A stretch of DNA of 64,000 nt from Eledone cirrhosa (lineage: Eukaryota). Below, piece after piece: positions 6,202-62,490 of this stretch (positions are counted from its first letter, which is position 1; every line of letters begins with the position of its first letter). A model generated the notes under the pieces. That model searched no databases. It saw only the letters and a program-made list of their open reading frames with translations, and was not told the DNA's origin. A program made the translations under genes and the position numbers. The DNA lies in contig OZ024751.1 in the NCBI GenBank assembly GCA_964016885.1, positions 8,122,001-8,186,000 of the forward strand, written 5' to 3'.

Positions 6202-6279
<78 letters not shown>

Positions 6280-6282
6280 GAG

Positions 6283-6480
6283 AATGTGTAACCCCGACGG
6301 CAGAGTTCAACCCGTTTCGACGGCTATTTCTGGACACTGAGTCCAGAAATTGCTGTCAAAACGGCTTAAGCTCTACCGTCGGAGTTAAACATTTTCCTAT
6401 TACCAACTGTTCTATACTAAGTATTGAGTACTCTGGTGCATTATGGTCCATCTGGTTCCTTACCACACTTCCTGCGTTAT
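6283..6480 (+). mobile_element. Hairpin PLE-terminal stub, family H copy 1
   Basis: Palindrome 6283-6393 plus a tail of about 90 bp shared with copies at 37345, 44956 and 55759. (TA)n on both sides. Confidence 0.8.
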
Positions 6481-6511: not shown

Positions 6512-6598
6512 CGACTTCGGTGAAATCGGATCGAGGAAACAATGTTTCCATTGGTCTTTCCAGTTGGTAATACTATCTATCGGTCGCAACTCCAGGTA

Positions 6599-6678
<80 letters not shown>

Positions 6679-6762
6679 TAGATAGTATTACCGATAGATA
6701 GTATTACCAACTGGAAAGACCAATGGAAACATTGTTTCCTCGATCCGATTTCACCAAAGTCG
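6512..6762. repeat. Inverted repeat (about 72-bp arms) around a (TA)n tract
   Basis: 6512-6583 is the reverse complement of 6690-6762 with 1 mismatch. Confidence 0.95.
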
Positions 6763-10589: not shown

Positions 10590-10795
<206 letters not shown>

Positions 10796-10820
10796 ATATA
10801 TATATACATACGTATGTATG

Positions 10821-10852
<32 letters not shown>

Positions 10853-13800
10853 TATGAGTGTGTATGTGTGCGTGTGTGGGGGGAATAAATAGCTAAAATA
10901 TACATTACAATATACACAGTTATGTATTGCGTTCTAAAAGGTATTATGTACCAACTTGCCAGTATTTTCGTATAATTTTATCAAGATCAATAGTTACAGA
11001 AGTTGCAGTAGTATTAGTATAAGAGAGGGAAATCAATGCTTGCAAGAATGCTTCCAATCACCGAGAAATCAATATTATCGATTCTAGCCGGGGCGTATTG
11101 ATTTTTCTATCGCATCACAGTGAATAGATATATATATAAATGTACAACCCTTCTTTTACTCTTTTATTTCCATAAAGAATTATGTGAATGAGAATGCAGC
11201 AATTATTTACGAAGATGGAAACTGTTGCTTTGACAACGCGTATCTAACAACTAAGTATTCTAAATATATGTTGTAAGGCTATCTTGGTAACACACAGAAT
11301 TGAATGCAAAAATCAACCTTGAATGGGGAAATCTGCAACGGAGCAGCTATTCATCTTGGGTATTGCCATTCGTCTAGGTTAAGAGGATTTCAAACATGAC
11401 TTACACGAATCATTTATTAAAGATCGATACTATCATGCAATCCCTTTTCACTCTAAATGCCACCCGTGTTTTCCAAATGTATGTGATTGTCTTTTAATCA
11501 ATATGCGTCTATGTCTAAAAACGAAAGATACATAATTACGATGTGAAAAAATAGTTAATTCGTTTGTAGACAGCAATCCAATAACCATCAAGTGATTGCC
11601 CCATTGATTTATTTTGTTATCCAGAATTCAGATTAATTAAAATATGATGGAAAGTTCTAAGTATAAATCTAGCGTTCTGCTAGAGATGTATATGAAAGCA
11701 TATACGATACTTTTATGTATAAATCTAACCTTGCGCTCTTCATATTACTTTGAACATAGTCTACATTTATCCAATCAAATATGCAATGTATGTTTGTTTC
11801 AAATTCCTAGTGAAATGTTGCTGAAAATAGCTGAAATGAACAAATTTATTTCATCGATTTTACTCATCAAAAGAAAAATGATTTCCTAATTATTTATTAT
11901 CTGTACACTGCTGTAAGCATTCTGTTTATTATTTGTGTAAGAAAAGTAAGACAAAACCGAACAAATATCCCCTCTAGTTAAATCACTCAAATTACTTCAG
12001 TTGATATATGCAATCTCTCAGTCAGTCACATTGTCAAGATTTGTCATTAGTAACAAACACAATAATTGTTACTATTTCACAATCAATCCGCCATTTTATC
12101 TAATTCCAAAGTTAAATTTAATGAGTTATTGCAAATTGAACATTTGTATTTTATTTTCGTTTTCGTTTTTTTTCCTAGTGTGTTCTATATTTATATAATC
12201 TCAGTAAAATGAGTAATTTTAATGAAATATTTCAGATTTCACAGGGATTACTATAAAATCTATATTACTACGTTTTCGAAAAAAATCAATGATTTTCGGT
12301 GGTAGTATCGTAGATCATAGGCAATGAAGCTACTGCCTGTACGATATTACCATCTTCTATCCATGTTTTGATTTGAATATGTAGGATATTGTTAATCCCT
12401 CTTTACAATCTGAAATACCGACAGTAAATTTTACTTCACTAACCACTGACGGATGGGGAATGTTATAGGAAAGTTTATACTATCGGCTCGGCTACCCCGA
12501 ATATTTATTGTCCGTCTCAACTATAGAATAAAGAGGTTTTCACTGAAATTCAGTCATATATATATATATACTAATGTATCATTTCATATATATATATATA
12601 TAAACATATATATATATATATTTCGATGTGTTCCTCGGTGTCGTTGTAAGCAACAGCTAATCATCTGAACATATCACATTCCTGAATGTTTCTAATCATT
12701 GTCAGTGAGAAAATATACGTTTGAAGTAAGAAAAATCGAATACGATATGAGATACTTAAAGAGATTTCATTCTTTGAACCTATCATGCTTCAAGTACGAT
12801 TAATTGATACACCGGGAAGAGATAATTGATATATTGAACCAGGGATTTCCTCTATATCTTCTATACGATTAGAAATATATTTCTTATAGAATTCATATGC
12901 GATATGTGTAAATCAGTATATATTTCCATAGAGACAGGACCAGGGATATATATATCTAAATAGTTTCCGAAACGTAAATATATTAGTTATAATCGTTATG
13001 GCATTACAGAGAACAAAGAGAGAACCCACCCTTACATCATTTGATGTGATACCAACTCAATGATAACGATTATTTGTATGTTATCATTTTTTATTCGATT
13101 TCTCGACAAAAGAACACAACTGCATCAACAAAATATCACCTACGTAATACATCTGACAGCTAGAAATAGCAGTCCAATCTCTTCCTTGGGCATAATCAAG
13201 TTCTATATACATAAACGAATGGTTAGTAATCACAGCTATATTTACCTTGTGCAGCGGATAGATGATTCTGGGATAGCATGAATGCAAACATATCTCGGTT
13301 TTCAACGACCTATCTACGAATTAAGCGGTATATCTATGTTTTTCTTATATATATATATAGTTTATAATGATATAGAATTCTGAAATTTATATCTAAGTAA
13401 TTCCATTATGTACCACTATTCAGACAGTGAGAGGACAGAAAATATAAACAATAACATTCTTTACCTCATAAAATAAGAAAGACAAAAACAACAACAATCT
13501 AATATATCATATTAACGAATGTAAGTATATATTTAGTATATCAATAAGCATTGTTCTTTTTACTGCTAAACTTTATTTTCTATTGCAAATTATATTACTC
13601 ACAGAGTGTCATTATAACTATTTCAAATGACTGAATATTATTGATTATCATAGAAACTAATACAAGAGGAGTGAATGAGATATTATCATTAATACATTTT
13701 TTTCAGTTATAGATGATACATGCAGTTGCTGCTCTTATTATTGCAGAATAATTATTGTAGGCATTTGCTACACCTCTTTCCAAACGTATACTTAATTTCA

Positions 13801-37344: not shown

Positions 37345-37348
<4 letters not shown>

Positions 37349-37545
37349 AAAAAAGAGGGTGTGGTAAGGTACCAGATGGACCATAATACACCAGAGTACA
37401 CAATACTTAGGGTAGTAGAGTGGGTAATAGGAAAAGAGTCAGGAACCCGGCAGCTGAACTCCTTACGTTTCGACAGCTAGATCCAAAGAGTTGGGATCTA
37501 GCTGTCGAAATGGCTGGAGTCAGCCGTTGGGCTCCTGACGCTTTT

Positions 37546-37550
<5 letters not shown>
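37345..37550 (-). mobile_element. Hairpin PLE-terminal stub, family H copy 2 (divergent)
   Basis: Hairpin 37427-37550 plus the shared tail; (TA)n on both sides. Confidence 0.78.
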
Positions 37551-42735: not shown

Positions 42736-43413
42736 AATAAATGTTATTTGAGTTTTTCAAATACTAATAATAATATTCGATTCGTTTTTAATTGTGCCCA
42801 CAAGCCTCATTTTTAAAGCCATGTCATTCTTGCTCTTGTGTTGCCACGTAAGCAGAGCTGCAGACACTAATCTTTCTGGGTATCATCCTTCATCAGTACA
42901 GTTCACTGTTCCCCTGCCAACTGTTAGAGCTAGAGAAAATATATAATATTTTCTAAAATATATAGTGACTGATCGGCCTAATTTTCATATTAGCAGACTG
43001 GCTGAACCGTCAGATCTGTATATTAGAAGATCCACTGTTCACCTGTTAATCTTCACTGGCCAGTGGGCTGATATGCAAATCTGGCTAATCAATGGATCTC
43101 CTAATATGCTGATCTGACTGATCAGAGAGTCTGCTAATATGCAAATCAGGCCGATCAGTCACTGTATATTTTAGAAAATATCATATATTTTCACTCGCTC
43201 TGACAGTTGGCATGTGAACAGTGAACTGTACCCAGACACATTAGTGTCTGTAGTTCTGTTTACAAGCCAACACAAGAGAAAGACCGTGTGGCTCATTCTA
43301 CTGACATGGCTTTAAAAGTAAGGCTAGTTTGCATAGTTGCAAACGAATCGAATATTATTATTAATATTTCAAAAGCTCACATTACATTTATTGTATTCAG
43401 CCATGTAGGGTGA
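42736..43413 (+). mobile_element. Fold-back PLE terminal stub, palindrome of about 650 bp
   Basis: Arms 42736-43037 and 43090-43392. HHR at 42858-42901 on the minus strand; its core is deleted in the right arm. Confidence 0.75.
42858..42901 (-). ncRNA. Hammerhead ribozyme motif
   Basis: ctgta-CTGATGA-agg..cca-GAAA-gattagtg-TC-tgcag. Confidence 0.7.
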
Positions 43414-43437
43414 ATATATATATATATATATATATAT

Positions 43438-43686
43438 ATAGCGGTAGAACACTGGAAGGTAATATCCGTAGTGGCATAGCACTCAATCCATGGGACGAGC
43501 TAGGTAAAAGTGGTTACACAACAGTTAGTTCACCATACCGAGAACAATTGTTTCACCTTAGCGGATGCTCAGCTTGGAATATAGACAATGTGTTGGTCCC
43601 ATTCCTCCAAGATACATATAGTAGGATCCGCTAAGGTGAAACAATTGTTCTCGGTATGGTGAACTAACTGTTGTGTAACCACTTCT
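43438..43686 (-). mobile_element. Terminal stub of the 5442 Naiad family with an inverted arm
   Basis: Homologous to 5442-5570. Arms 43509-43566 and 43626-43683. Degenerate HHR at 43540-43575. Confidence 0.85.
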
Positions 43687-44955: not shown

Positions 44956-45264
<309 letters not shown>

Positions 45265-45349: not shown

Positions 45350-45356
<7 letters not shown>

Positions 45357-45877
45357 TAATGAAATGACAGGAGGCTGGATTTGTGTAAATCCTTGAAAGG
45401 TTTATTATACTATGATAATTTCTATGACCGGGTTCCGTATGAATCCGGTGATATCATCAGGTATTCGAAATATAATACGTGAATGTAATAGGTAAAATCC
45501 ATGGGGCTGAAAAACGAGACCCGGGCGACCGGCTGAGGTTGAAGGAACAGAATAGCGGTCGCCCTCGGGTCTCGTTTTTCAGCCCCATGATTTTACCTAT
45601 TACATTCACGTATTATATTTCGAATACCTGATGATATCACCGGATTCATACGGAACCCGGTCATTGAAATGATCATAGTATAATAAACCTTTCAAGGATT
45701 TACACAAATCCAGCCTCCTGTCATTTCATTATAATATTTAACTCCGTAATAGCACCACCAACTACAAAAACAAAGACGGTTGAACTGCTTTACGTTGAGT
45801 ACTCTCTATATTATTGCATTACGATTGACCATACGGAATAGACCAGCTCTATACAGTGGTGAACCTCAAACCTGAAT
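45350..45877 (+). mobile_element. PLE terminal stub with a near-perfect palindrome of about 390 bp
   Basis: 45350-45738 is self-complementary with a spacer of about 25 nt. HHR-like CTGATGA..GGAAcccggTC at 45617-45670. Confidence 0.8.
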
Positions 45878-55710: not shown

Positions 55711-55758
<48 letters not shown>

Positions 55759-55760
<2 letters not shown>

Positions 55761-55956
55761 CGAAGGAAATGTGGTAAGGAACCAGGTGGACCATAACGCA
55801 CCAAAGTACTCAATACTTGAGGTAGTAGAGTGGGTAATAGGAACCAGTAAGACCCCGACAGCTGAGCTCAAGCCGTTTCGACGGCTAATTCTGGACCGGG
55901 TCCAGAATTAGCCGTCGAAACGGCTTGAGCTCAGCTGTCGGGGTCTTAGTGGTTCC

Positions 55957-55959
<3 letters not shown>
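55759..55959 (-). mobile_element. Hairpin PLE-terminal stub, family H copy 4
   Basis: Hairpin 55837-55959 with arms of about 60 bp and 1 mismatch; (TA)n on both sides. Confidence 0.85.
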
Positions 55960-58823: not shown

Positions 58824-58878
<55 letters not shown>

Positions 58879-58884
<6 letters not shown>

Positions 58885-59112
58885 ATACTTTGGGAGGGTC
58901 ATGTTGCCAATAAGAAACACACGCACCAGATGTTTTCACTTCAATTTATTATATATTTATAAATTTATAAATTTATAAATATATAATAAATTGAAGTGAA
59001 AGCAACTGGTGCGTGTGTTTCTTATTGGCAACATGACCCTCCCAAAGTATAACAATATCGATTTCAACACACGATTTCAGATAAAGAATCTTGCTAAACA
59101 AATTCAGAAACG

Positions 59113-61689: not shown

Positions 61690-62490
61690 TAAAATTGTTT
61701 AATTAATAACACAAGGAGTGTATAGCAATAAATAAAAAAATCACTTATGCTTTGTATGTATACATTATGTGCGGGAGTAGATATACTGTGTATATTCTGA
61801 GTGAGTGAGTATATATATAGTTATGTACCTTTGCCTATGTATATGTGATATACGATAGATAATCTCTCTAGCAATATATATATTTTATAATGTTTAAATT
61901 CCAATTTTTTAATATATTGATCTCAATTTTTAAACTAAATATGTAATCATAATTAAACAATGTGTAATTTCTCATATTATATATCTATATTCCATTCACG
62001 AATATTAATATTTCTAATTTTATTTATTCATTTCATCTCAATTGTTAACTCAACTTAATATAACATAACTTAAGGTTTTCGGTCTCTCCCCCCTATCTCA
62101 ATCTCTGCATATCTCTCTCTTGAGTTCTTTCTCTGTCTGATGTTTTGATATCTCCCCGTTAATTTTCCTCTGTTCTCTTTTCTTTTTGCTTTCTTCTTTT
62201 TCTTTATCTATCATTCCCTTTCTTTTCTCCACGTTTCTCTCTCTCTCTCTCCATCTTTTTACTTACTCTTAATACTATGACTTACTAAAGTAAACAAACC
62301 ACTATCCGGATGGCCTCCAAAAACAACGGTCACCTTTTTGAAAGGGTACGTCAATATCTATTTGTAAAACTGTTATATATAGTATTTTGTCTGATGAAGG
62401 CATACCATGATTTAACTTGGTATCCTTGAAATATATATAATGAAATAAGTATGGTTTTATAAATATAGTTTCCATTTATTAATATTGTAT
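61690..62490 (+). mobile_element. PLE 3' UTR/terminus related to the 45895 Naiad
   Basis: 62382-62487 aligns to the reverse complement of about 45990-46093; ends in (TA)n. Confidence 0.7.
62383..62447 (+). ncRNA. Canonical type I hammerhead ribozyme
   Basis: tattttgt-CTGATGA-aggcatacca..tggtatcctt-GAAA-tatata-TA-atgaaata. Confidence 0.82.

Follow-up and report, generated by a model that had tools for sequence, protein, structure and literature searches.

Palindromic stubs in (TA)n tracts of Eledone cirrhosa probably consist of two separately primed cDNAs of a Penelope-like element

An inverted arm beside a tail on one side only is a known structure of Penelope-like elements (PLEs) (PMC8557442, PMC3846280). 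In the available parts of the literature, PLE transcription starts in the pseudo-LTR (pLTR) (PMC2377424, PMC8557442), and pLTR promoters with initiators are on record (PMC2377424, PMC3846280, PMC8557442). The same sources state the origin of PLE pLTRs, tandems, and inverted ends as open (PMC2377424, PMC3846280, PMC8557442). According to the available text of PMC11167929, a PLE protein cuts and extends both target strands in vitro and starts at both tail borders. For PLE hammerhead elements, circular RNA was proposed, and a U3-A8 core was reported for those of Schistosoma, i.e., Cercyon (PMC4209133, available part).

The window, i.e., the whole analysed stretch of 64,000 nucleotides (contig OZ024751.1, positions 8,122,001 to 8,186,000), holds in its (TA)n tracts four related elements of approximately 200 bp, each composed of a long hairpin and a common tail of approximately 80 nt (Table 1). 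These elements had been described in an earlier note made from the letters alone, and they are real and related far beyond chance, i.e., pairwise blastn gave E-values of 1e-20 to 1e-47 for most pairs. The hairpin precedes the tail on the plus strand in the stubs at 6278 and 44956, and on the minus strand in those at 37345 and 55758. Element positions are counted from the G of GAAA as 0, with minus for upstream and plus for downstream. The focal hairpin (55837-55959) has a single mismatch across its outer 52 nt. Its tail-bearing arm contains the end of loop II, the 3' strand of stem II, GAAA, stem III, the cleavage triplet, and the 3' strand of stem I. In full elements, the tail segment continues into the 5' UTR and the ORF. 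A G stands immediately before an arm start in all four stubs; at 44956, the G preceding the tail arm is also explainable by the partner arm.

Table 1. Coordinates of the stubs and their parts in the window.
Feature	Position	Strand	Remark
Focal stub insertion, subfamily B2, in (TA)n	55758..55958	-	tail-bearing arm head to head with tail-less arm
Focal tail, ~80 nt, +42 to +121	55758..55837	-	between two fixed outer insertion ends
Focal tail-bearing arm, hairpin part, -17 to +41	55838..55896	-	
Focal apex, 3 non-templated bases	55897..55899	.	read as extra G before each arm
Focal tail-less inverted arm, -17 to +41	55900..55958	+	ends on TA of TTCCTA
Focal tail-less arm, sites	55917; 55939	+	G of GAAA; predicted cleavage C
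Stub, subfamily A/D	6278..6479	+	inverted arm end at -17 (6335); GAAA mutated to AAAA
Tail arm of the 6278 stub, start at A-18	6340	+	extra G before (6339)
Stub, subfamily C	37345..37550	-	tail-less arm begins at A-18 (37489, + strand), extra G at 37488
Stub, subfamily A/D	44956..45144	+	tail arm begins at A-18 (45014); short deletion at tail border

As the earlier note had read it, the place expected for a hammerhead core is indeed taken by the downstream sequence in reverse complement. Several of its details were corrected. The hairpin, said to be always followed by GAAAcgg, reads AAAAcgg in the tail arm of the 6283 element and GAAAtgg in the tail-less arm at 37427. The left half of the "inner hairpin" belongs to the inverted duplication, as its innermost part, and the hairpin is not a stem in its own right. 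What had been taken as copy-specific variants, mirrored in both arms, are in the focal copy variants of its subfamily, and 5,991 exact arm matches carry them. A count over 101 palindromes gave 38 mirrored variants, of which 18 were private, and 296 differences confined to one arm.

Other inverted repeats were also seen in the window. A second, unrelated palindrome in (TA)n at 45350-45738 has 150-bp arms and a nested hairpin in the middle. Each of its arms carries a canonical, outward-pointing CTGATGA-stem-GAAA, i.e., another hammerhead family that keeps its core. Four further long inverted repeats from other repeat families (6512-6762, 42896-43231, 43508-43684, and 58877-59058) lie mostly beside or around TA runs. 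At 62391-62431, CTGATGA-stem-GAAA runs straight into a TA run and is possibly a truncated hammerhead of another family.

The tail was searched in the species' own genome (3.0 Gb), and the best 40 of 520 candidates were scored. The tail-search loci (30) were mostly similar stubs, and two of them, L013 and L014, extend into coding sequence, so the search proposed in the earlier note did recover longer copies with a PLE ORF. Searching with the ORF start gave the full layout, i.e., pLTR(hammerhead)-tail-5'UTR-ORF(RT, GIY-YIG)-3'UTR-pLTR. In the translations of three loci (L251, L090, and L031), FDIESYY, YxDD, and VIY...YIG follow one another in that order. Pfam scans of ORF pieces gave no match, and the RT and GIY-YIG domains were assigned by motif. 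The ORF has 1,375 relatives at E<=1e-20; those among the matches listed are mostly of approximately 700 aa, and hardly any has a name. The PLE origin suggested earlier is confirmed by these RT and GIY-YIG ORFs in the long copies, and the stubs are 5'-truncated insertions of a Penelope-like element.

The element has the features of EN+ PLEs, i.e., RT and C-terminal GIY-YIG in a single ORF, a pLTR tandem, an inverted 5'-truncated copy, and a one-sided tail. Its sequence motifs match those of the Hydra clade, in which it is placed on this basis. The ORF contains SDKTG (DKT), CNCPDRSMC (CxCX5C linker), CNLC (CxxC), and CKH (CxH); it reads RWR where the Hydra clade has RWK. A "Neptune-like" label was dropped on the Hydra-clade definition, as given in the available part of PMC8557442. 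Of 145 scored arm ends, 126 adjoin TA repeats, with 34 further ends left unscored. The family is abundant: a 19-base arm motif has 48,288 or more exact matches genome-wide (arms counted), and 464 kb contain 24 clusters. Directly behind the TA run of L013, at L032 (joined coordinates 10702-12654), lies a long RT-GIY-YIG ORF of another PLE family, which is diverged.

The long copies fall into four subfamilies, A, B, C, and D. The earlier note had expected CTGANGA upstream of the stem in longer copies. The literal motif occurs in none of 95 long copies, which reflects the known U3-A8 variant, and the hammerhead itself is present as a predicted fold. The cores were TTGATAA in 46, CTGAGAA in 26, TTGAAAA in 15, CTGAAAA in two, and others in six, so that 61 of the 95 have a U3-A8 core (TTGATAA or TTGAAAA); for these counts, similarity to core-bearing queries was used to fetch A, B, and D, and a pattern that leaves positions 3 and 8 free was used for C. 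The features of the U3-A8 variant were found together, i.e., a three-helix junction, U3-A8, G10.1-C11.1, GAAA, and a UH site. Over 32 aligned copies, 93.7% of 620 cells in the three helices are paired. In stem II, three pairs change on both sides between subfamilies, a count among related sequences that is not above shuffles (460/500). In free folds, the junction was formed by L067 and L199, and not by L037 (subfamily B). In Rfam scans, neither the window nor any of four long loci had a hammerhead match at the site. Helix pairing and folds support a hammerhead-type fold at the place claimed in the earlier note, and the element carries a predicted U3-A8 variant, i.e., a putative ribozyme.

The long copies place the true stem II at -56 to -45 with -11 to -1, around a loop of 33 nt, and not at the inner hairpin to which the earlier note had assigned it. 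The stubs retain the 3' strand of stem II and 6-7 loop bases, whereas the 5' strand and most of the loop are missing. The loss of the ribozyme in the stubs is therefore real, its 5' half being gone. A tandem non-LTR retrozyme, with head-to-tail monomers and complete hammerheads, was rejected, because the stubs are head to head and lack the core. A cleavage-site hotspot at +23 was also dropped, since ends at +23/+24 showed a weak excess (4/188 tail arms), too small to count. Two further points were seen in long copies. In L067 and others (-75 to +41), stem I is extended, and its base coincides with the +41 end. In subfamily B (L014, L037, and others), the CUGAGAA of the 26 copies has either a C3-A8 mismatch or a deletion of N7 with an extra base before stem II.

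The outer ends of the insertions are fixed, i.e., at +121 with the tail or at +41 without it, each on a TA. Among 114 paired palindromes, 101 join a tail arm to a tail-less arm, 10 are tail-less on both sides, and three are tailed on both sides. In 77 of the 101 tail-less arms, TTCCTA runs straight into TATA. Solo long copies also terminate at +41, as read from element-coordinate segments only, with flanking repeats included in some references. These two ends fit the known biochemistry, because the PLE protein starts at both tail borders in vitro (PMC11167929, available text).

Bulged hairpins of similar shape (4 bp, 2-nt bulge, 4 bp) were noticed at L236:1296-1345 and L250:1727-1776 (minus strand), beginning 4-6 nt beyond +41 and beyond +121; the shape formed in two of five folds, with no significant z-score. 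The 5' UTR alone contains the hairpin past +121, and priming at +121 would accordingly lie at the 5' end of the RNA. L227 has, approximately 20 nt before its last direct segment, an inverted arm with an outer end approximately 55 nt beyond +121 in the 5' UTR, which suggests a rarer third start site.

The inner ends were mapped in 179 arms unselected for length. Most ends of stub arms, tailed or tail-less, lie at -12 to -18, where the distribution breaks off sharply at -17/-18, and 11 of the 179 arms extend past -60. The stop rate among arms at risk was 22/108 at -17, 31/86 at -18, 10/55 at -19, and 2/45 at -20. The peak recurs in unselected stretches (9/36 and 8/27) and in all four subfamilies, and the position of the edge is identical across subfamilies and both arm types. 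Many arms stop at -12 to -16, as trimming would yield. Secondary peaks at -25 (10/28) and -30 (5/18) are probably microhomology artefacts. Loop II has diverged between subfamilies except for short runs, of which the longest, TTAGT with its A at -18, is common to all four; we take it to resemble an initiator. An open frame beginning at -16 was dropped on account of a 2-nt indel there between subfamilies. A stub-only, non-autonomous B2 lineage was rejected as well, because 30 of 100 B2 arms among the matches listed continue natively past -24 (by eye).

The pLTRs linked to an ORF behave differently. None of 17 ends at -12 to -20, against 121 of 164 unselected arms (p=4e-9), after 11 of 28 loci that ended before the anchor were left out. 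This argues against a structural block at the edge, and long copies likely use another template. Arm partners are coupled, with 105 short-short, 19 long-long, and 11 mixed pairs in a sample enriched for long loci.

An extra G marks the copying of the cap in L1 (PMC11702581, available part). In the stubs, the non-templated next base was G at 26 of 51 ends at -18, compared with 16 of 74 ends elsewhere (Fisher p=0.001). The excess comes mainly from loci selected for non-T at -19 (22/35), and in unselected groups only four of 13 "free" bases were G. In the young subfamily B2, G was found in 16 of 19 non-T cases among the matches listed (by eye), in several cases against a bare TA repeat or on both arms. 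The tail-selected group had seven C at the free position, most of which look like partner-arm bases missed by the k-mer rule. The commonest single apex (6/56) has C, not G, at -19, and two search patterns with a leading D, including that of the B2 listing, left out apices with C at -19. A recurrent arm start in B2, GCGTCC, with C replacing A-18 and G before it, was noticed in approximately four of 100 matches listed. No common sequence, i.e., exon or leader, was found upstream of the arms beyond the extra G, and splicing to a common upstream exon was thereby rejected.

In the best explanation, each stub arose from two cDNAs, primed separately, which both reached the 5' end of an RNA of the element, probably a capped end, and were joined head to head. 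From the sequence evidence, we give this reading a probability of roughly 0.6. Within it, priming from two sides is very probable, and a capped transcript start at A-18 is somewhat favoured. The endonuclease would cut both strands of (TA)n, and each 3' end would prime reverse transcription at +41 or +121, as internal start sites near the 5' end of the RNA. The cDNAs of about 59 and 139 nt would run off a transcript starting at the initiator-like A-18, the cap often being copied into an additional G. Both cDNAs would then be fused by end joining, accompanied by small losses, microhomology, and templated inserts. The stubs would lack the ribozyme core because an RNA starting at A-18 does not contain it.

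In its simple version, this run-off reading is contradicted by the ORF-linked copies, since full-length copies should also end at -18 and none of the 17 does. It would thus need a second template class for the long insertions, which may be a read-through tandem or a ribozyme-made circular RNA without an end at -18. A wider scheme is offered tentatively from the same sequences, at a little less than even odds. A promoter inside loop II of the hammerhead would yield a capped half-ribozyme mRNA, and two-site strong-stop cDNAs of this mRNA would give tens of thousands of dead-end palindromic stubs. Productive long or tandem copies would come from a separate ribozyme-processed circular RNA or from read-through RNA.

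Several other origins were weighed against the two run-off cDNAs. The two cDNAs may also have been primed separately with the -17/-18 edge formed at an uncapped RNA end or a pause, i.e., through breakage of loop II by a nuclease or in connection with splicing, or through stem II refolding behind the enzyme, and with the extra G added by terminal-transferase activity. This is unlikely, although it accounts equally for the symmetry and coupling of the arms. Together with the conserved YTAA before it, TTAG also has the look of a 3' splice site, and the short partner lies at -11 to -18 in four of the 11 mixed pairs. Yet a pause should act on ORF-linked copies too, where none of 17 stops was seen, and the edge stays in place although subfamilies A and C have different inner helices in loop II. 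The lack of any common upstream exon or leader beyond the extra G also speaks against this origin. Amplification of the palindrome as a unit, MITE-like or via hairpin RNA from few masters, has a very small probability. Some apices do recur (six, three, and two of 56), but 48 of the 56 are distinct. Per 38 nt, tail-less arms differ from one another by 3.45, from the tail arms of other copies by 3.25, and from their own partner by 2.93, so the partner is closest and tail-less arms do not cluster across copies. The fixed junction and clustering left arms of a MITE-like palindrome were not found. In 55 of 88 palindromes, both arms carry the same subfamily tag (shuffled mean 7, maximum 16), and the insertions are independent, as the earlier note had held. 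No strand-biased A>G excess was detected in 101 palindromes, with at most two per copy, which speaks against a hairpin-RNA route, and RNA editing in the stubs was rejected. Unit amplification is largely refuted for the bulk, and a minority of unit copies is possible.

Self-priming was considered in two forms. In the general form, one cDNA would snap back near its 3' end and be copied back to +41, with central deletions shuffling the apex. It was already proposed for head-to-head PLE palindromes in the available part of PMC3846280. The two arms of a copy do match and stop at comparable positions, and the 10 of 114 palindromes tail-less on both sides are what snap-back from +41 would yield. Nevertheless, this form is improbable here. 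A tail-primed snap-back needs a tail arm at least as long as its partner and cannot lengthen the tail-less arm, whereas among 101 palindromes the tail arm was longer in 38, the tail-less arm in 37, and neither in 26. In L054, a tail-less arm of 385 bp has a tail-only partner, and in L014, a tail-less arm of 3.4 kb faces a tail arm of 480 bp. Later central deletions could mimic unequal arms. The general form is also opposed by the extra G on both arms of single copies (L280, L392, and B2 pairs), by +41 as an independent end in solo copies, and by the two tail borders being in vitro start sites (PMC11167929, available text). The more specific form, in which self-priming follows a fold-back of the nascent cDNA on hammerhead stem II, was the route of the earlier note. 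Stem II is a real helix in long copies, and the apex lies at most 7 nt from its 3' strand. The map of fold-back centres refutes it as the main route, and we regard it as having almost no chance. The native loop was kept in one of 114 apices, one of 179 arms ends in the zone of the stem II 5' strand (-45 to -56), and the tail-less arm exceeds its partner in more than a third of palindromes (37/101). ORF-linked copies pass stem II in 17 of 17 cases, one by internal deletion. The two run-off cDNAs are therefore preferred to both forms of snap-back. Clear differences in subfamily tag between two partner arms are rare (1-2/94), so the use of two RNA molecules is seldom shown.

The layout of the stubs is itself ordinary for PLEs. 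No account of cap-marked run-off PLE stubs or of a ribozyme-internal start was found in the literature covered, with most subscription journals outside its scope. With tens of thousands of stubs, single-base statistics can separate the published self-priming from two-sided priming, and the run-off reading makes one sharp prediction, namely that capped transcripts start at A-18, within the ribozyme. If it is true, many MITE-looking hairpins in (TA)n-rich animal genomes would be by-products of retrotransposons. If the promoter in loop II is also true, the stubs would preserve, across the genome, a fossil record of where transcription starts and of two classes of template.

Twin priming in L1 is known as the use of two primers on one insertion. 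The stubs resemble it in having two primers per insertion, and they share with L1 an extra G at the RNA 5' end (PMC11702581, available part); here, however, both cDNAs copy the same segment, which gives an inverted duplication and not an inversion. With Poseidon-Ac, the family shares two RT start sites that bracket the tail near the pLTR-ORF junction and the cutting and extension of both strands. In the available text of PMC11167929, the cDNA ends are unmapped, the inverted arm is unexplained, and the target is described as non-homologous, whereas here both ends lie on TA.

The predicted ribozyme shares with the Cercyon hammerheads of Schistosoma (PMC4209133, available part) type I topology, U3-A8 covariation, a long helix II, a 5-bp helix I, G10.1-C11.1, a palindromic loop III, and opposite-strand pairs. 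It differs in a real 5-bp helix III and the 33-nt loop II. Subfamily B has CUGAGAA (C3 with A8, or N7 deleted) in its predicted ribozyme. Rfam gave no hammerhead match at the site. Compared with the Hydra clade in the available part of PMC8557442, the order RT then C-terminal GIY-YIG, DKT, CxCX5C, CxxC/CxH near the C-terminus, and (TA)n targets are the same. RWR in place of RWK and the non-canonical core, U3-A8 or CUGAGAA with a long stem II, are different. As in the EN+ PLE insertions of the available literature (PMC8557442, PMC3846280, PMC2377424), a direct arm with a tail adjoins an inverted arm without one, with a head-to-head palindromic joint, a tandem pLTR-ORF-pLTR, and AT-rich targets. 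The tail is approximately 80 nt here and 30-40 nt in those reports, and here 121 of 164 arms stop within -12 to -20, yielding stubs of approximately 200 bp. The joint data of this family argue against the self-priming proposed in the available text of PMC3846280.
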